From assembly GCA_033580375.1 (NCBI GenBank), contig GCA_033580375.1_4527.1: DNA of 64,000 nucleotides; one strand, given 5' to 3'. Under the pieces are notes generated by a model. That model saw nothing but the letters and a program-made list of their open reading frames with translations. It ran no database searches and had not been told where the DNA came from. Of the stretch, positions 9,739-63,934 are shown in pieces (within the stretch, counting starts at the first letter, position 1; each line of letters starts with the position of its first letter). Both the position numbers and the translations under genes were made by a program. Source of the DNA: a phage.

Positions 9739-10665
9739 ATGTCAGGTTATAATGCACAAAACCCTAAAGAATTAAAGGATGTAATATTACGTCGTTTAGG
9801 CGCTCCTATTGTAAATGTCGAATTAACTACAGACCAAATTTATGATTGTATTTCACGAGCGTTAGAACTTTATGGCGAATACCATTTTGACGGGTTAAAT
9901 AAAGGTTTCCATGTATTTTTTGTTGATGACGAAGAAAAATACCGTCACGGCGTATTTGATATGCGTGGTTCTAATGTATTTGCTGTAACAAGAATTATAA
10001 GAACAAACGTTGGCTCTATTACTTCAATGGATGGTAACGCAACTTATCCTTGGTTCACTGATTTCCTTTTAGGAATGGCAGGCGTTTCTGGTGGTATGGG
10101 TAGTAATTGTGGTAAATTCTACGGTCCGAACGCTTTTGGTGCCGACCTCGGGTATTATTCTCAATTAGTATCTTATATGGGTATGCTTCAAGATATGATT
10201 GCTCCTCTTCCAGATTTTTGGTTTAACTCTGCAAACGAGCAATTAAAAGTAATGGGTAACTTTAGACAGAAAGATGTTATTATCGTTGAATCGTATGTTC
10301 GCTCTTATATTGAGACACATAAGATGGTAGGAAATACAGTAGGTTATGGACAGGTCGGTCCTCGTGATTCATGGTCTATTTCTGAGCGGTATGACAACCC
10401 AGACCATAATTTAGTCGGACGTCGAGTTGGTGAAGATCCTGCAACTAAACAAGGCGCATATAACAACCGCTGGGTTAAAGATTATGCAACTGCATTAGCT
10501 AAAGAGCTTAATGGACAAATTCTTGCTAAACATCAAGGTATGATGTTACCAGGCGGTGTCACTGTTGATGGTGTTCGATTAATTGAAGAAGCCCGTTTAG
10601 AGAAAGAAGCTTTACGAGAAGAGTTATATTTACTGGACCCTCCTGCAGGTATTTTGGTAGGTTAA
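9739..10665 (+). CDS. 13: Neck protein gp13
   Basis: 308 aa versus T4 gp13 309 aa; synteny. Confidence 0.8.
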
Positions 10666-12305: not shown

Positions 12306-14631
<2,326 letters not shown>

Positions 14632-25039: not shown

Positions 25040-26047
25040 TTATGATACTAATTCAATCCATGCAGGACGCAGAACATCTTGCACCATTCGGACTAATTCT
25101 TTCTTAACAAGATTCGGATTATCAGATGATGTTAATACAATACCTTCACGAGAAGTTTCTTCCAGAATATCTTGAACAGTCAATCCCATCACTTTGCCAA
25201 AATCTTTTGGTGTTACAGTCCCAATCTTAGAAATCACATTATTAACACGATTTAATGTAACATAACAAGCTAGAACATCAAGCAAGTTTTTGTCAATTTC
25301 GGTTAATGGAACCTGAGTTTTAACAGGTTTATCAGACTTTTTCTTTTCACTGAATTTAGAGTTCTTGCACTTAATAGCTACACGAGTACCGTTTGGCAGC
25401 CATTTAGGGAAACAAGGCTTCAGAACATAACCTTCTGCCGTATTATCACCAATAACATTAGCATCAAATACACAATTATTTGCTTCGACAAGGTCTTCCG
25501 ATGCCGTAGCATTATAAGCGGCTAAGACGGAATCAAGGTCGTTTGGAATCATGATAAGAGCATCAAATGTTCCACGTCCAAGCATTGGTGCCATTTTAAA
25601 ACCAAACGTATTACAGAAATCTTGCATTTCGTAATCACTCATGTAATAAGTATCACCGCTTTCCGTGTTTATGATGATATCGAATACATAGAAATCTTTT
25701 TCACCGTAGTCAACACCTTTCTGAATTCCACCACCAGCGAATTCACCAAAGACTTGATATGTCACCGGCACTGAAGTTGAAATACTGCCCATGACTTCCT
25801 GAACGGCTTTAATAGCTTTATCATACTTCTTGAGTACTATTTCATAACCATAAAAATCTTCTGCTGGAAGAATAGGGCCTGTGCGCTTGGCGCATGTGAC
25901 GTTGTCACGTTCAATAATTAAACTAAAGTTGGTCCCATGGATTTTCTCACGTGCTACCCAAACACCAGTAGTCAAACCATTAGTGTAGAGTTTTTCAATA
26001 AACTTAGAGTTGTAGTGGTTTTCAAGACTGCTGTATTTCTTAAACAT
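25040..26047 (-). CDS. rnlB: RNA ligase 2 (Rnl2)
   Basis: 335 aa; N-terminus [20 protein letters not shown] and KIHG adenylylation motif match T4 Rnl2. Confidence 0.95.
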
Positions 26048-26138: not shown

Positions 26139-26164
26139 ATTATACCATCAAAAAATGTAAAGCA
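26139..26164 (-). promoter_or_regulatory. MotA-dependent middle promoter for rnlB
   Basis: - strand reads ATGCTTTAC (MotA box) - 13 nt - TATAAT, upstream of the rnlB ATG. Confidence 0.6.
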
Positions 26165-26166
26165 TA

Positions 26167-26418
26167 TTAGAACTTGATTTCTATCCAATGACCATCACGC
26201 TGGTCGTGATTAATTTTGTACTGAAAGCCATTATCACGTAACCACTGCCCGACTTGCTCTGTGATAGTTAAATCATTCTTTGATGGATAGTACGTGAATT
26301 GTGTCTGGCCTTTGTCAGCGGCTTTCTCTGCCATCACAGAGAAGTTAGTAATAAAATCACTCAACAAATTGGCTTTAGTGGCCAGAGCCCTTTCTCTTAA
26401 TTCCTGTGCAAAACTCAT
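26167..26418 (-). CDS. Hypothetical protein (83 aa)
   Basis: ORF in operon orientation; overlaps the upstream gene by 4 nt (ATGA). Confidence 0.5.
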   Translation of the reverse strand: MSFAQELRERALATKANLLSDFITNFSVMAEKAADKGQTQFTYYPSKNDLTITEQVGQWLRDNGFQYKINHDQRDGHWIEIKF

Positions 26419-28817: not shown

Positions 28818-28825
28818 TATAAATA
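28818..28825 (+). promoter_or_regulatory. Late promoter TATAAATA for uvsW
   Basis: Exact TATAAATA ~30 nt upstream of the uvsW ATG. Confidence 0.65.
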
Positions 28826-28854: not shown

Positions 28855-30369
28855 ATGACTGACATTAAAGTACATTTTTATGATTTTAGTCACGTTCGCA
28901 TTGAATGCGACGAAAGTACGTTTTACGAACTTCGTGACTTTTTTAGCTTTGAAGCTGACGGGTATAAATTTAACCCAAAATATCGCTATGGGCAATGGGA
29001 TGGTAGAATTCGACTTTTAGATTACAATCGTTTGTTACCATATGGACTTGTAGGACAAATAAAAAAGTTCTGTAACAATATGAGTTATTCTGTATGGATT
29101 GACCCTAAAATCTTTGAGACCGAAGACCTTACCAGGGAAGATTTTGACGCATGGCTTTCTAAACAAGAAATTTATTCAGGCAATGCCAAAATCGAACCGC
29201 ATTGGTATCAAAAAGATGCAGTATATGAAGGACTAGTTAATCGTCGTCGAATTTTAAACCTTCCGACATCAGCAGGTAAATCACTAATCCAAGCACTTTT
29301 AGCTCGGTATTATCTAGAGAACTATGAAGGTAAAATTCTCATTATCGTCCCTACAACAGCATTGACAACCCAGATGGCTAATGATTTTGTTGATTATCGC
29401 TTGTTTAGTCATTCGATGATTAAGAAAATTGGCGGTGGTGCTGATAAAGCCGACAAATCTAAAAACGACGCTCCAATTATTGTTGGCACATGGCAAACGG
29501 TAGTTAAGCAGCCTAAAGAATGGTTCTCTCAGTTCGGTATGATGATGAACGATGAATGCCACTTAGCAACAGGCAAAAGTATTTCTTCAATCATCTCAGG
29601 ATTAAATAATTGCATGTTTAAATTCGGTTTATCCGGCTCATTAAGAGACGGAAAAGCCAATGTAATGCAGTACGTAGGTATGTTCGGCGAAATCTTCCGT
29701 CCTGTTAGCACGTCTAAATTAATGGAAGACGGACAGGTAACTGAGCTTAAGATTAATAGTATTTTCCTTCGTTATCCAGACGAATTCGCCACTAAATTAA
29801 AAGGTAAAACATACCAAGAAGAAGTTAAAATTATTACCGGACTAAAACGTCGTACAAAGTGGATTGCTCAACTTTCAGTCAAATTGGCTAAGAAAGACGA
29901 GAACGCCTTTGTAATGTTTAAACACGTTACACACGGTAAAGAAATATTTGAAGCTATTAAAGAGCTTGGATACGAAAAAGTTTATTACGTATCAGGTGAA
30001 GTTGATACTGAAACACGTAACGCTCTTAAAGTCATGGCGGAAAATGGTAAAGGCATTATTATTGTCGCATCATATGGAGTATTCTCTACCGGTATTTCAG
30101 TCAAGAATCTTCATCATGTTATTTTTGCCCATGGTGTTAAATCAAAAATTATCGTACTTCAAACCGTAGGTCGAGTGCTTCGTAAGCATGGTTCTAAAGC
30201 TGTTGCTACAGTTTGGGATCTCATCGATGACGCAGGTGTAAAACCTAAATCATTAAATACTAAAAAGAAGTATACTCATCTTAATTACTTGTTAAAACAC
30301 GGTATTGATCGTATCCAACGTTACGCTGATGAGAAATTTAACTATGTAATGAAAACAATTAATTTATAA
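28855..30369 (+). CDS. uvsW: UvsW RNA-DNA / DNA helicase (SF2)
   Basis: 504 aa; Walker A-like LPTSAGKS and DExH-like MNDECH motifs; T4 synteny. Confidence 0.9.
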   Translation: MTDIKVHFYDFSHVRIECDESTFYELRDFFSFEADGYKFNPKYRYGQWDGRIRLLDYNRLLPYGLVGQIKKFCNNMSYSVWIDPKIFETEDLTREDFDAWLSKQEIYSGNAKIEPHWYQKDAVYEGLVNRRRILNLPTSAGKSLIQALLARYYLENYEGKILIIVPTTALTTQMANDFVDYRLFSHSMIKKIGGGADKADKSKNDAPIIVGTWQTVVKQPKEWFSQFGMMMNDECHLATGKSISSIISGLNNCMFKFGLSGSLRDGKANVMQYVGMFGEIFRPVSTSKLMEDGQVTELKINSIFLRYPDEFATKLKGKTYQEEVKIITGLKRRTKWIAQLSVKLAKKDENAFVMFKHVTHGKEIFEAIKELGYEKVYYVSGEVDTETRNALKVMAENGKGIIIVASYGVFSTGISVKNLHHVIFAHGVKSKIIVLQTVGRVLRKHGSKAVATVWDLIDDAGVKPKSLNTKKKYTHLNYLLKHGIDRIQRYADEKFNYVMKTINL

Positions 30370-30394: not shown

Positions 30395-30625
30395 ATGGTA
30401 CTTGAATTTAAACAATTTTTATACGAAGCATCTATTGACGAATTCATGGGTAAAATTGCTAGTTGTCATACCCTAGAAGGGCTTGAAGAATTGGAAGCTT
30501 ATTATAAGAAACGTATAAAAGAAACGGAATTAAAAGATACAGATGATATTTCTGTCAGGGATGCCTTAGCAGGTAAGCGTGCCGAACTTGAAGGCGACGA
30601 TGAGGATGCGGAAGAAGATTTCTAA
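30395..30625 (+). CDS. uvsW.1: UvsW.1 small acidic protein
   Basis: 76 aa ORF directly downstream of uvsW, as in T4. Confidence 0.75.
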   Translation: MVLEFKQFLYEASIDEFMGKIASCHTLEGLEELEAYYKKRIKETELKDTDDISVRDALAGKRAELEGDDEDAEEDF

Positions 30626-30681: not shown

Positions 30682-30849
30682 CTATAGTAAAAGTTGGGTT
30701 TCGTTCAATTGCTCTTCTGAACTTTCTGAAACCGGCAATTGTTGTACATAATTATAACAAGGACCAGGATGTGCTGGACCTTTGTCTGTTTCAACAACCA
30801 ATGCAGAATCGATTGGAGTTTTACAGACAACACAAATCTTATCTGACAT
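30682..30849 (-). CDS. Unannotated small protein (55 aa) with CxxC motif
   Basis: Not in the ORF track (below 60 aa). ATG at 30849 preceded by AGGAGG; translation MSDKICVVCKTPIDSALVVETDKGPAHPGPCYNYVQQLPVSESSEEQLNETQLLL. Confidence 0.55.
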   Translation of the reverse strand: MSDKICVVCKTPIDSALVVETDKGPAHPGPCYNYVQQLPVSESSEEQLNETQLLL

Positions 30850-30881: not shown

Positions 30882-31106
30882 TTATACCATTCGCATGCAC
30901 ATATCGATACCCATATCTTTTGTATAAAAATACTCGTCGATGTACCCAGCAAACTTCCCTTTAATATAAAGGACGTCTTCACCACAAGGGTGGTCGGCCA
31001 GAATACGAATATCCTGACGTCGTAGACGATACTTTTCCATTAAGAATTTAATTTCAGTTTCAAATTCTTCATCATTATTAAAGGCATCTTCAATTGAATA
31101 ACGCAT
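30882..31106 (-). CDS. Hypothetical protein (74 aa), uvsY-upstream small gene
   Basis: ORF in operon orientation; T4 has small uvsY.-1/uvsY.-2 genes here. Confidence 0.55.
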   Translation of the reverse strand: MRYSIEDAFNNDEEFETEIKFLMEKYRLRRQDIRILADHPCGEDVLYIKGKFAGYIDEYFYTKDMGIDMCMRMV

Positions 31107-31519
31107 TATTGCCCCGCTTCAAATTCTCGCATATCTTGAATATGTTTAAGTGCAAAACTACGAGACTTAACTGCATCAAGTGCACCACTACAGAACTCAA
31201 GTAAAATTCCCCAGTATTGTAAAGTAGTCTCTATTTTAAGCACATCTTTATCTGCAGCCAGGACAGTTTTCATTTCAGATTTCTCATATCGGTCCATACT
31301 GAATTCATCACCGTCACCTCGTCCCGAGTAGTAGTCTAATCTTGCTTTTAGAGCAGTTTTCTTCTGAGTCTCTATACGCAACATTTCTTTACGAATAAAT
31401 GAGTGCTTACGTAGCCATTTGCTGTATAACTTAACATTATTCGCCGTCTCATATTGCAACTTTGTCATATCAATAGCTAAGTCTGCGTCTAACTCTTCCT
31501 GTAAATCTTCCAGCTTCAT
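31106..31519 (-). CDS. uvsY: UvsY recombination mediator protein
   Basis: Sequence MKLEDLQEELDADLAIDMTKLQYE...HIQDMREFEAGQ matches T4 UvsY; start set to the ATG at 31519, giving 137 aa. The track ORF extends upstream into the promoter. Confidence 0.95.
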   Translation of the reverse strand: MKLEDLQEELDADLAIDMTKLQYETANNVKLYSKWLRKHSFIRKEMLRIETQKKTALKARLDYYSGRGDGDEFSMDRYEKSEMKTVLAADKDVLKIETTLQYWGILLEFCSGALDAVKSRSFALKHIQDMREFEAGQ

Positions 31520-31574
31520 AATGTTCTCTCTTTTAACTAATAATCTCCCGGCTGTATCGGAAGGACCTAAAACC

Positions 31575-31601
31575 ATTATACATAGGTTGCCTTGAAGCAT
31601 T
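31575..31601 (-). promoter_or_regulatory. MotA-dependent middle promoter PuvsY; in T4 this promoter is the core of replication origin oriF
   Basis: - strand reads ATGCTTCA (MotA box) - 12 nt - TATAAT, overlapping the gene 25 stop codon. Confidence 0.65.
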
Positions 31602-31998
31602 ACACTCTATTGCTTGACGCTAACTGAAGTTTAATTTGTTCGATATCATCAGGGTTATCTACGACCGAAAATCTAATCTCTACTATAACTGTATAGTCAT
31701 CATATACTGGCGTTACACTTACAGAAAGTTTGTCGATGCGAGGCTCATAGTTACGGACAGCTGCCTGGATATTACGCTCAATAGTATCGGCTGTAAGTGG
31801 TGTCATGTTCTCGAAAAGTTCGTCGACCAAATCGCATCCAAATTCAGGGTCGAAGGGGCGTGAGCCTTTTCTAGTTGTCACTATGCCAAGAAGACTATTT
31901 TTAATAGAACGAAGTCCTACAGAACGAGCAACGTCCTTGTTCCAATCTATACGCATTTCTGGGTCGATATCTGAATAAAGTTTATTGATATTAGACAT
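31600..31998 (-). CDS. 25: Baseplate wedge protein gp25
   Basis: 132 aa; sequence MSNINKLYSDIDPEMRIDWNKDV...QLASSNRV nearly identical to T4 gp25. Confidence 0.95.
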   Translation of the reverse strand: MSNINKLYSDIDPEMRIDWNKDVARSVGLRSIKNSLLGIVTTRKGSRPFDPEFGCDLVDELFENMTPLTADTIERNIQAAVRNYEPRIDKLSVSVTPVYDDYTVIVEIRFSVVDNPDDIEQIKLQLASSNRV

Positions 31999-32624: not shown

Positions 32625-32643
32625 GTTAACTCCTTTATTGTGT

Positions 32644-32651
32644 ATTTATAA
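32644..32651 (-). promoter_or_regulatory. Late promoter TATAAATA (- strand) for genes 26/25
   Basis: Reverse complement of TATTTATA at 32644-32651; overlaps the + strand late promoter of gene 51. Confidence 0.6.
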
Positions 32652-32654
32652 ATA
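32647..32654 (+). promoter_or_regulatory. Late promoter TATAAATA for gene 51
   Basis: Exact TATAAATA ~18 nt upstream of the gene 51 ATG. Confidence 0.65.
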
Positions 32655-43137: not shown

Positions 43138-43403
43138 TTGATATCCTCGATTTTGGTTACGGTTCTATTATAAGCCACTTCATCTAGAAGCGATTTCAGC
43201 GTTTTCTGATAAGTGGTAACCCGTTTACCGAGTCCTTCAACATAATATTCTGAAATGTAGATGAACCCTTGTTCAACACACTCTTTAAATATTTCTGCGT
43301 CTTTTACTGAACGAAACAATGTCCAGTCTCGAAAGAACATGTTAACATGACCATAGTCACGTGTGGTATTTTTGCCATCTGTAATATCATGAACTACAAA
43401 CAT
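43134..43403 (-). CDS. Hypothetical protein (30.1-like)
   Basis: 89 aa ORF directly downstream of ligase. Confidence 0.55.
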   Translation of the reverse strand: MFVVHDITDGKNTTRDYGHVNMFFRDWTLFRSVKDAEIFKECVEQGFIYISEYYVEGLGKRVTTYQKTLKSLLDEVAYNRTVTKIEDIK

Positions 43404-54915: not shown

Positions 54916-56091
54916 TTAGAAATATTTTTTGTATGAATTGATTACATTTTGGTCTACATCATTATCAATTTGTGCAACAAGATAAGAACTGATTTCAACT
55001 TCCTGAGGAGCTGCTTGAACTAAATCAGAGTTCAGATATTCACGAATCCAAGGATACGGATGTTTGGTCGGAGCATCAGTAATTGGACACGGCAAACCAC
55101 ACTGTTTCATACGAGACACAGTCAAGTAATCAACAAAAGCACACATACTCTGTGTATTGATACCTGGACATGTACCGTCTTTAAAGAGGTGCGCAGCCCA
55201 TTCCTTCTCTTGACTATTTACTTCCATAAAAATGTCAACTGCTTCTTGTTCACATTCTTTAGCAATTTGAACCCACTCATCGCCGTCAGTACCAGATTGA
55301 AGTTGACGGATAATGTACTGAGTACCCTTAAGGTGGAGTTGTTCGTCACGAGCAATGAACTTCATAATCTTTGCATTGCCTTCCATAATTTCCATATTTT
55401 TATGGAAGTTGAAAGTACATGCAAATGATACGTAAAAACGAATAGCTTCTAAGGCGTTGATAACGTGCAAACAGAGATAAAGAGATTTCATTAGCTCACG
55501 CTTGGCGTTAAACATTATTTCTTCGTACATCTCAATATCATTCTGCTGGCATGAGCCTAGTGAATACTCATAATTTTCCTTAGCATTTTCCCAATGGCGA
55601 GTCTTGATTAGAACATCATCATAATATTTACCTATTGATTCAGCTCGTTTCATGATTGCTTCGTCTAATACAATTTCATCAAATACCTTAGATGGATCGG
55701 TATAAAGATTTCGCATAATATGAGTATATGAACGAGAGTGAATAGTTTCACTGAATGTCCATGTTGCAACCCATGTATCTAATGAAGGGTCAGAAATAAG
55801 TGCCATAAGTACCGCAGATGGGGCCCTGCCTTGTATAGAATCTAATAATGATTGATACTTAAGATTGTTTGTAAAGATGTCCTGTTGGAACTGAGGAAGC
55901 TTATTGAACTGCGCAGAGTCCAACATCAAGTTTACCTCTTCTGGGCGCCAAAAAAATGAGAGAGATTTTTCAGTAAGGTCTTCAAAAACTTTATGACGTT
56001 GGATATCGTAACGTGCAATGCCTAAACCAGAACCAAAAAACATCGGTTCATTTAAAACATCAACTTGTTGGGTGTTAAAAACTGTGCTCAT
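54916..56091 (-). CDS. nrdB: Ribonucleotide reductase small (beta) subunit, uninterrupted
   Basis: 391 aa; di-iron/tyrosyl radical R2 family; T4 synteny; no intron. Confidence 0.9.
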   Translation of the reverse strand: MSTVFNTQQVDVLNEPMFFGSGLGIARYDIQRHKVFEDLTEKSLSFFWRPEEVNLMLDSAQFNKLPQFQQDIFTNNLKYQSLLDSIQGRAPSAVLMALISDPSLDTWVATWTFSETIHSRSYTHIMRNLYTDPSKVFDEIVLDEAIMKRAESIGKYYDDVLIKTRHWENAKENYEYSLGSCQQNDIEMYEEIMFNAKRELMKSLYLCLHVINALEAIRFYVSFACTFNFHKNMEIMEGNAKIMKFIARDEQLHLKGTQYIIRQLQSGTDGDEWVQIAKECEQEAVDIFMEVNSQEKEWAAHLFKDGTCPGINTQSMCAFVDYLTVSRMKQCGLPCPITDAPTKHPYPWIREYLNSDLVQAAPQEVEISSYLVAQIDNDVDQNVINSYKKYF

Positions 56092-56729
56092 TTAAAATCC
56101 TTAAATTTACATTTATCATAATGCCATCTTAAAGCATTACCCTTATTAACTTTCTTGCCACAATGTGGACATGGCGGATATTCAGTACCAGATTTAGTCT
56201 TTTCAGATATTAACAATTTTGTTTTATCTGTATGTGGTACACCTCTTGTTGGAGATATTGTACCATACATAGGATTAAGCACACCAAGTTTAGACTTTGA
56301 TATATTTTCACAGTGTTCTTTAGATTTAGGCTTTCTCATCCGTTGGATATGTAAATCTGTAAATTGTCGTCCTTTCAAAGCTTCGCTGATTTTAGCTTTG
56401 GTTTCCTCAGACATTTCACGTCCAGTCATAGCCTCTGATAGAAGTTTCTTGCCTAATTCGTATAGCCTAGAAGAAACGTTATAATTTCTCCCTTTATTGG
56501 TCAAACACATCATACCAAAGGCTTGTTTAAGACCAGGATAAGAATTGAATTTGGTTAATAATCTATGAGCTAAAAAGTGTTCACGACCAGTTAAATCCAC
56601 AAGGTTTTCAACATCATTGGTTCCTCCTAAACATTTAGGAATTATATGATGAGTCTCTTTATATTCGGATAAAGGTTCCCGAGCCTTCGCCCGGGAAATT
56701 AGGTCATTATAGATTTTTTGATAATTCAT
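56088..56729 (-). mobile_element. Free-standing HNH homing endonuclease (at the T4 mobE position between nrdA and nrdB)
   Basis: 213 aa; HNH motif ETHHIIPKCLGGTNDVENLVDLTGREHFLAH; C-terminal CPHCG...C zinc ribbon. Confidence 0.8.
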
Positions 56730-59041: not shown

Positions 59042-59071
59042 TAATTTATTATACACTTTTAAACTGAAGCG

Positions 59072-62252: not shown

Positions 62253-63155
62253 TTATAGACCAGCTAACAGGTCATCGAGGTCGCCATCATCAGAGGATGA
62301 GGTAGAGCTCATGAAGTCATCTTCAGTTTTTGCAGAACTAAAGGCTTCCATGTCTTTATCAAAATCGTCAAGGTCAGAAGCAACTTTATCTGCAACAGAA
62401 GCTGCTGCGGCTGCTGCACCACCAAGAGCGGCAGTACCAAGAACCTTAGCGAAAGATTCATTTAATTTTTCAAAAGATTTGAACTGGTCTTTAGCCGTCA
62501 AAGTAGTAAGGTCTACCATCTGGTCATACAGTTCTTTCTGGAATGCTTCGTCATTAATACGAGGAATTTCAGATTGACCCAAGAATTTAGATTCGTCATA
62601 GTTGCTAAAACCGGAAACCTGCTTAGCTTTCAGAACGAAGTTAGCACCTTCAAACGGACAAGTAACATCAACTGGAGTTTCACCCATTTCGGTATCAACT
62701 GCAATCATTGCATTGATTTTGTCCCAAATCTTTTTACCGAAACGATATTTAAATACTTTACCTTCGTTATCTGGAGCTTGAGGGTCTTTAACAACCAGAA
62801 TATTAGCCCAATAAGAAGTTTTACGTTTCAGTTGAGAATATTCAGTTTTGTTGGTATTGTACAGGTCATTTTTACTAATGTACTGACATACAGGACAAGA
62901 GTCGTAATCACCGTGTGTAGAAGAGCAATTTTCAATATACCATTTACCATTTTTCTTGAAACCGTGGTTAACAAGAATTGCAAATGGTAGTGCATCATCA
63001 GTTTTTGCTGGCAAGAAACGAATTACCGCTTGACCATTACCTGATGCATCTAGCTTCAGCTTCCATTCGCCTTTATCTTCTGAAGAGAAACCTTTGTTAC
63101 CGTTCAGTTTAGCCATTTGAGCAGCGAGGTCAGCAGTAGATTTACGTTTAAACAT
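62253..63155 (-). CDS. 32: Single-stranded DNA-binding protein gp32
   Basis: 300 aa; sequence [36 protein letters not shown]... matches T4 gp32. Confidence 0.97.
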
Positions 63156-63280: not shown

Positions 63281-63934
63281 TTAATACTTACATGATTTGA
63301 TTGTTTCTATGAACAATTTCTTAGCAGCATTTCCATCGATTTGAAGTATTTTTCGATATGCCTTTAATTTGGTAGAATAATTTTGCCAGACTAAATTGTC
63401 GGTAAGTTCGTCATGCTTATCTATAATATTCAAGAATGAATCCAACAACAAGAAGGTTTCAAATGAAATTATATTGCTTTGTAGCAATTTAAATATGTAG
63501 CTCGACTGAACTTTATTATTATAATCAAATATCTCTTGAAGCGCACTAACTTCCACCTTCTTACTGAAATAGTAGATGTTACGTACATCTTCAGCAAACG
63601 TCTCCTTGGCCTGTTTGAGACGTCCAATATATTCCCTATAGAAAACTAATGCATCAGCGTCTGAGATCTCACCAATCCATGCATCTTGGTTAGCAACTAA
63701 GTTACTGATGAATATCAAAGTGAGTTCCTTTAACTTATATTTCTCTGATAGTTTCTCAAAGAAATATTTATCTCGGCGTTTTTGATACGCATTATCCGAA
63801 ACACGCATGCACCAGTTATATTTGATTACGTCATACCGACCATTAAAATGTTGTTTGCACATCAAGTATAGTTTGTATACCGATTTTCCATTAATATAAC
63901 GTTCTCCATCAGGAGGCATGCGTATTTTAATCAT
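63281..63934 (-). CDS. 59: Helicase loader gp59
   Basis: 217 aa; sequence MIKIRMPPDGERYINGKSVYKLYLMCKQHFNGRYDVIKYNWCMRVSD... matches T4 gp59. Confidence 0.95.
   Translation of the reverse strand: MIKIRMPPDGERYINGKSVYKLYLMCKQHFNGRYDVIKYNWCMRVSDNAYQKRRDKYFFEKLSEKYKLKELTLIFISNLVANQDAWIGEISDADALVFYREYIGRLKQAKETFAEDVRNIYYFSKKVEVSALQEIFDYNNKVQSSYIFKLLQSNIISFETFLLLDSFLNIIDKHDELTDNLVWQNYSTKLKAYRKILQIDGNAAKKLFIETIKSCKY

Follow-up and report, generated by a model that had tools for sequence, protein, structure and literature searches.

A probable MotA-dependent uvsY middle promoter in a Mosigvirus phage and the question of an oriF-type origin

The segment directly upstream of uvsY in the phage DNA analysed here (64,000 nucleotides, contig GCA_033580375.1_4527.1 of assembly GCA_033580375.1; the whole stretch is termed the window) is very likely a MotA/AsiA-dependent middle promoter of uvsY and a direct ortholog of T4 P_uvsY, carried by a Mosigvirus phage. 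Sequence comparison makes it the positional ortholog of T4 P_uvsY/oriF. As a promoter it is routine, a textbook element already known from RB69. Nolan et al. 2006 predicted 32 RB69 middle promoters (PMC1524935), among them Pm:117605 (117565-117605, minus strand, HMM score 8.1; Additional file 4 of PMC1524935). The RB69 promoter sequence is identical to that of the window and the coordinates of Pm:117605 correspond, so that Pm:117605 is this element as it occurs in RB69, the type phage of the genus; it was published as an HMM prediction with no origin role proposed. A T4-like middle promoter is likewise annotated at this site in GenBank record OL960576. The promoter assignment is thus not new.

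Promoter elements and their gene context

The minus strand of the window upstream of uvsY reads agagtgTAATGCTTCAaggcaacctatgTATAATggttttAGGTCC. The following elements can be distinguished:

31593-31602, minus strand: MotA box TAATGCTTCA, centred near -30 (consensus from PMC2988021)
31581-31592, minus strand: 12-nt spacer AGGCAACCTATG, without TGn extended -10
31575-31580, minus strand: sigma-70 -10 element TATAAT, 6/6 match
31568, minus strand: predicted transcription start, the A of TAGGTCC, seventh nucleotide past the -10 element, placed by reference to T4
31559-31574, minus strand: discriminator and initial transcribed block GGTTTTAGGTCCTTCC, semi-conserved (T4 counterpart GAATCTAAGTCCATCC, other lineages similar)

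The published MotA consensus is (a/t)3TGCTTtA, located 12 ± 1 bp from TAtaaT (PMC2988021). TAATGCTTCA fits this consensus with a c for t at the penultimate position as its sole mismatch, and c is permitted at that position by the older consensus TGCTT(t/c)a (PMC2988021). The distance of 12 nt between the box and the -10 element is within the spacing rule. The gene 25 stop codon TAA (31602-31600) forms the first three bases of the box, and the leading a of aTGCTTCA, as the earlier note had read the motif, is the third base of this stop codon. That note had described a MotA box, 12 nt and TATAAT on the minus strand before uvsY, overlapping the end of gene 25. This observation is correct, with the elements located at 31602-31575, and requires one refinement, namely that a TGn extended -10 is absent: the bases before the -10 element read ATG-TATAAT, versus TGG-TATAAT in T4. 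The sequence of the spacer differs between Mosigvirus records. The motif is rare in the window. TGCTTNA-N11-13-TATAAT is found twice in 64 kb when both strands are considered, compared with 0.10 ± 0.33 expected from shuffled sequence, while GCTT-N13-15-TATAAT is found five times (5/5 on the minus strand) compared with 1.12 expected.

A single further perfect MotA-type match exists in the window. It consists of TGCTTTA, a 13-nt spacer and TATAAT at 26139-26164 on the minus strand and lies between an 83-aa ORF (26167-26418) and a 335-aa ORF (25040-26047). By position, this candidate corresponds to T4 PrnlB and probably to Pm:112073 of the Nolan list. Further GCTT-N13-15-TATAAT candidates, all on the minus strand, are found at 43167-43191, at 59048-59070, just upstream of nrdA, and at 63518-63542, within the gp59 ORF. 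A 213-aa ORF adjoining nrdA (56088-56729, minus strand) shows NUMOD3 and weak HNH matches and is a homing-endonuclease-like gene in the T4 mobE position.

The genes around the site are arranged as follows:

31600-31998, minus strand: gene 25, baseplate wedge (Pfam GPW_gp25, 4.9e-19)
31106-31519, minus strand: uvsY, 137 aa (Pfam UvsY, 8.5e-48; start aligned with T4)
30882-31106, minus strand: uvsY.-1, probably on the same transcript as uvsY
30682-30849, minus strand: uvsY.-2, probably on the same transcript as uvsY
28855-30369, plus strand: uvsW helicase, convergent with uvsY (Pfam UvsW_N and helicase domains)
28818-28825, plus strand: late-promoter motif TATAAATA of uvsW, about 30 nt before the uvsW ATG

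The uvsY start codon (31519-31517) lies 55 nt past the -10 element and is preceded by a Shine-Dalgarno sequence, GAGAG at 31530-31526, which aligns with that of T4. A DUF2685 match was obtained with Pfam among the uvsY.-1/uvsY.-2 ORFs, and gp26 (Pfam T4_baseplate) is encoded upstream of gene 25. The point of transcriptional divergence between genes 26 and 51 (32624/32672) is located about 1.1 kb upstream of the site, as in T4. The gap between these two genes contains two TATAAATA motifs on opposite strands that overlap by 4 nt (32643-32654), a compact divergent late-promoter pair which is also annotated in OL960576. On the plus strand, uvsW (504 aa, 28855-30369) and uvsW.1 (76 aa, 30395-30625) are read as two ORFs with 25 nt between them, an arrangement shared with RB69; T4 is currently annotated with one 587-aa uvsW, accompanied by a note on sequence discrepancies in that section.

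In the proposed mechanism, AsiA would remodel region 4 of the host sigma-70 early in infection, MotA would bind TAATGCTTCA at -30 and sigma-70 region 2 would engage TATAAT. Transcription would then proceed from about 31568 across a non-coding leader of 49 nt and on into uvsY, uvsY.-1 and uvsY.-2. MotA dependence, the start site and co-transcription are inferred. RB69 encodes both motA (RB69p264) and asiA (RB69p257); the corresponding genes fall outside the span of the window. RB69 MotA is 51% identical to T4 MotA overall, with a well conserved N-terminal activation half and a far more diverged C-terminal DNA-binding half, so that recognition of the box is assumed. This divergence, together with the modest Nolan score and the absent TGn, counts against the promoter reading. 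It should be noted that the same box consensus was predicted for both phages despite the C-terminal divergence of their motA products (10002-10634 of the piece compared in RB69, 12967-13602 in T4).

An ordinary host-type early promoter, recognized by sigma-70 independently of MotA and carrying GCTT by chance, is improbable. Its -10 element would be the perfect TATAAT, but the hexamer at the -35 position, read by eye, is GTAATG at 17-nt spacing and matches TTGACA at only 2/6 positions, TGn is missing, and the uvsY site was not listed as a sigma-70 promoter in a -35/-10 consensus scan. Further, the box is conserved between lineages and fits the MotA consensus. It is more improbable still that the motif is coding, with the ATG at 31600 inside the box starting a 164-aa UvsY, although the frame is open from 31600 into uvsY in the window and is annotated in this way in RB69 (NC_004928 117104-117598), in PhAPEC2, in SA79RD and elsewhere. 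In APCEc01 and G53, both annotated with 137 aa, the leader has lost 1 nt and the frame is interrupted; in T4 it runs into a stop. The broken and stopped frames indicate a non-coding leader, and the extended ORF was rejected on the basis of the deletion; the Pfam UvsY model spans residues 9-137 of the short form, and alignment with T4 matches the ATG at 31519 and its Shine-Dalgarno sequence. The additional 27 residues very probably reflect an annotation error propagated through Mosigvirus records.

Orthology to T4 P_uvsY and conservation between lineages

In the 1.6 kb around the site, many Mosigvirus (RB69-like) phages, among them NHEP11, phiC120, HX01 and Shf125875, share 98-98.7% identity with the window. 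The window thus comes from a T4 relative and not from T4 itself. At the same gene 25 stop/uvsY junction, T4 (NC_000866) carries TAATGCTTCA, 13 nt and TATAATG, and the window promoter aligns with T4 P_uvsY base for base. The start of T4 P_uvsY was mapped by experiment to 115371 (PMC2988021, Table 1), which is the A of TAAGTCC, seventh nucleotide past the -10 element; the homologous base in the window is the A of TAGGTCC at 31568. The two sites share junction position, TAATGCTTCA, TATAATG, downstream genes and neighbouring uvsW, and are alike in the initial transcribed block (TAGGTCCTTCC in the window, TAAGTCCATCC in T4). They differ in the spacer, which is 13 nt with TGn in T4 and 12 nt without TGn in the window, and in the leader, which is 5 nt longer in the window and contains a GC-rich hairpin where the T4 unwinding element begins A+C-rich. 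Origin activity is proven for T4 oriF, whereas the window site is a candidate.

The junction was compared between at least nine lineages represented by IMG/VR contigs, with UvsY identity down to 64%. Between gene 25 and uvsY, these lineages retain a GCTT-type box and, after 12-13 nt, TATAAT; the box core is CGCTT in two lineages and TGCTAA in one. Depending on the lineage, the gene 25 stop codon lies before, inside or after the MotA box. When the nine lineages are aligned, no non-coding columns other than the GCT core and TATAATG are invariant. The uvsY leader is free to vary, both in sequence and in length (34-62 nt between the -10 element and the ATG). This pattern points to selection on the promoter itself.

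The segment downstream of the promoter

Two features were delineated downstream of the -10 element:

31545-31563, minus strand: GC-rich hairpin CTTCCG-ATACAGC-CGGGAG (CTTCCGATACAGCCGGGAG), 6-bp stem and 7-nt loop, Mosigvirus-specific
31495-31545, minus strand: residual A+T-rich zone, +30 to +80 past the -10 element, spanning the Shine-Dalgarno sequence and the first uvsY codons

The first 30 bp past the -10 element are 57% GC, compared with 33% in T4 and 30-40% in all other lineages, and are more stable than 94% of all 30-bp windows in the window. Over the first 100 bp the GC content is 41%, compared with 29% in T4 and a window mean of 37.8%. The high GC content of the first 30 bp is due to the lineage-specific hairpin segment, which is absent from all other lineages compared and invariant within Mosigvirus, so that covariation cannot be assessed. 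A structured RNA or a terminator was considered and rejected: the folding energy is no better than that of shuffled sequence (z about -0.5 to -1), the segment 31563-31545 has no Rfam match, and only a simple terminator-like scan flagged it. For the hairpin, a role in attenuating late transcripts that read through from genes 26 and 25 is conceivable, as is one in mRNA processing or stability. GGAG, the cleavage motif of T4 RegB, occurs in the 3' arm, and AUUAUUAGUU follows the hairpin. Within the T4 oriF DUE, the uvsY leader contains a tandem 10-nt duplication, with CCAATAACAA present twice (2846-2865 of the T4 piece compared), while five other Tequatrovirus-type contigs carry CCAATAACAA once and have 10 nt less leader than T4. 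DUE length thus varies even between close T4 relatives.

DNA opening was modelled with a Benham-type SIDD calculation, our own single-run approximation, parameter values included. With the fragment placed in its native phage context of 4.2 kb, the positive control failed, as the T4 oriF DUE was not opened because A+T-rich intergenic regions elsewhere took the opening, and this version was discarded as non-discriminating. The calculation was rerun with equal-length fragments in a synthetic vector of about 54% GC, mimicking the plasmid assays that defined the DUE. At sigma -0.06 the control worked, with an opening probability of about 0.99 for T4 and 0.90-1.00 for other lineages; the window gave 0.56 (range 0.06-0.93) with one vector set and 0.93 with another, values suited to qualitative use only. 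At sigma -0.05, the window reached 0.15-0.20 versus 0.53-0.62 for T4. The opening zone of the window is displaced to +30 to +80, with the hairpin part closed; the A+T-rich zone is the only candidate unwinding element, predicted in this plasmid-like context to be weaker than that of T4 by an unstable estimate. As a thermodynamic proxy for R-loop formation, the RNA:DNA hybrid energy minus that of the DNA duplex was approximated with nearest-neighbour parameters; over 94 nt it amounts to -6.6 kcal/mol for the window, beyond the 5th percentile of the window background, versus -1.0 kcal/mol for T4.

To calibrate these measures, the same metrics were applied to all 58 mapped T4 middle promoters on the assembled T4 genome. 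None of downstream GC content, duplex stability, opening or hybrid energy separates oriF, oriG and oriA from the other mapped promoters (n = 58). OriF falls in the middle of the range on most measures. In GC content, oriG (P34i) comes 56th of 58 over the first 30 bp (47%) and 55th over the first 50 bp (44%), and oriA lies near the A+T-rich end. Dozens of T4 promoters that are not origins have downstream DNA that is more A+T-rich and more easily opened than that of oriF. The window site would rank beyond all 58 for GC content of the first 30 bp, 53-54 for the first 50 and 100 bp, 46-52 for opening and 4 for hybrid stability. Since the metrics do not separate origins from other promoters, a weak DUE is poor evidence against an origin, and a strong one would be poor evidence for it. 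Cumulative GC skew is uninformative as an origin signal, the site lying on a flat plateau from 22 to 40 kb.

The replication-origin question

Minimal T4 oriF comprises about 100 bp, with the middle-mode promoter as its upstream half and, directly behind it, an A+T-rich DNA unwinding element, the DUE (Kreuzer and Brister, PMC3016281); the DUE boundaries used here are those given there. By this definition, a promoter alone does not define an origin. The T4 DUE needs no particular sequence, as heterologous elements can take its place, gp59 and gp32 are required for R-loop replication, UvsW unwinds oriF/oriG R-loops late in infection, and T4 origins have few obvious sequence characteristics in common (PMC3016281). 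In the T4 record, oriF is annotated as a rep_origin at 115321, 50 nt past the P_uvsY start. The rep_origin points of NC_000866 lie 50, 50 and 64 nt downstream of the starts of P56 (oriA), P_uvsY (oriF) and P34i (oriG), respectively, a geometry consistent in 3/3 cases.

The promoter expected of an oriF/oriG-type origin is very likely present at the window site, and the trans-acting factors are accounted for, with UvsW (including its TATAAATA motif), gp59 and gp32 encoded in the window and rnh annotated in RB69. The two genes not yet listed are:

62253-63155, minus strand: gp32 ssDNA-binding protein
63281-63934, minus strand: gp59 helicase loader

T4 oriG (ori(34), P34i) is a second useful comparison. 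It is likewise a middle promoter, with TGCTTCAAG as its box, and its downstream GC content of 47%/44% (first 30/50 bp) is near the 57%/42% of the window, an example of a proven R-loop origin whose start is not strongly A+T-rich. It differs in that it is located inside gene 34 in antisense orientation and has no homology to the window past the promoter. No downstream motif common to oriF, oriG, oriA and the window was found.

There is about an even chance that the site drives uvsY in Mosigvirus without acting as an origin, either because the hairpin insertion displaced the unwinding element or because the origin is a T4-specific by-product. Conserved boxes and a free leader are what would be expected if selection acts on expression, the window lineage is the outlier in downstream GC content, and even close T4 relatives do without 10 nt of the T4 leader. 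This divergence is not decisive, as origin status in T4 cannot be predicted from downstream GC content or opening, heterologous DUEs work there (PMC3016281), and the hybrid energetics of the window are favourable.

An oriF-type origin in addition to the promoter would be compatible with the middle-promoter explanation and add to it; we consider it plausible, with the evidence leaning slightly against. In such an origin, the middle transcript would stay annealed downstream as an R-loop and be processed, as by RNase H in T4. The processed RNA would prime leading-strand synthesis, gp59 would load the gp41 helicase, and UvsW, expressed late, would remove the R-loop. Works-like behaviour is known from ColE1, where the promoter-initiated RNA II persists as an RNA:DNA hybrid and is cleaved by RNase H to yield the leading-strand primer. 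ColE1 differs in that it depends on a specific RNA II fold and on host RNase H and Pol I, whereas T4-type origins use phage proteins and no specific downstream sequence.

Several observations argue for an origin at the window site: positional orthology to T4 oriF, with oriA and oriG showing the same geometry (+50 and +64); a hybrid energy ranking fourth among 58; the residual A+T-rich zone at +30 to +80; the set of replication factors, which includes UvsW with a late promoter and, in RB69, rnh, motA and asiA; and the tolerance of T4 for other DUE sequences, including a proven oriG with 47% GC in its first 30 bp. On the other side, only 2-3/58 mapped T4 middle promoters are origins, so that a promoter alone predicts little. 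The DUE-homologous segment has diverged and its GC content exceeds that of all 58 T4 promoters and of every other lineage, and the predicted opening is weaker than that of T4. Further, a rep_origin feature is absent at this locus in the RB69 record, no origin mapping in RB69-type phages was found in the literature, and T4 origins have few obvious sequence features in common. Our estimate takes into account the base rate, the exact positional homology, the divergence downstream of the promoter and the hybrid energetics, which are favourable.

The earlier note had interpreted the site as a middle promoter and, by analogy with T4, as a strong candidate origin. The first part is borne out by the consensus match, the T4 alignment, the conservation in nine lineages, the poor -35 and the presence of MotA and AsiA in the lineage. 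The second part, which follows from orthology, is overstated: the downstream DNA has diverged, the RB69 record, unlike that of T4, has no rep_origin at this locus, no origin mapping in RB69-type phages was found, and sequence metrics do not tell T4 origin promoters from the others. The interpretation is partly supported, and the origin role may fairly be called plausible, not strong.

It is an unlikely prospect that Mosigvirus provides a natural test of the rules for R-loop origins, having kept the oriF promoter while the first ~28 bp of the unwinding element were replaced by a GC-rich hairpin. As a related possibility, the GGTTTTAGGTCC block just past the -10 element, which is conserved between genera, may be an origin-specific or R-loop-nucleating element and not a promoter feature. 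If the origin still fires, the unwinding element can sit about 30 bp from the start, and the stability of a G-rich hybrid can compensate. Alternatively, the promoter may have been retained and origin function lost or relocated. The site is an orthologous promoter whose downstream DNA has been altered by nature, and it would thus serve as a ready-made variant for the plasmid origin assay.
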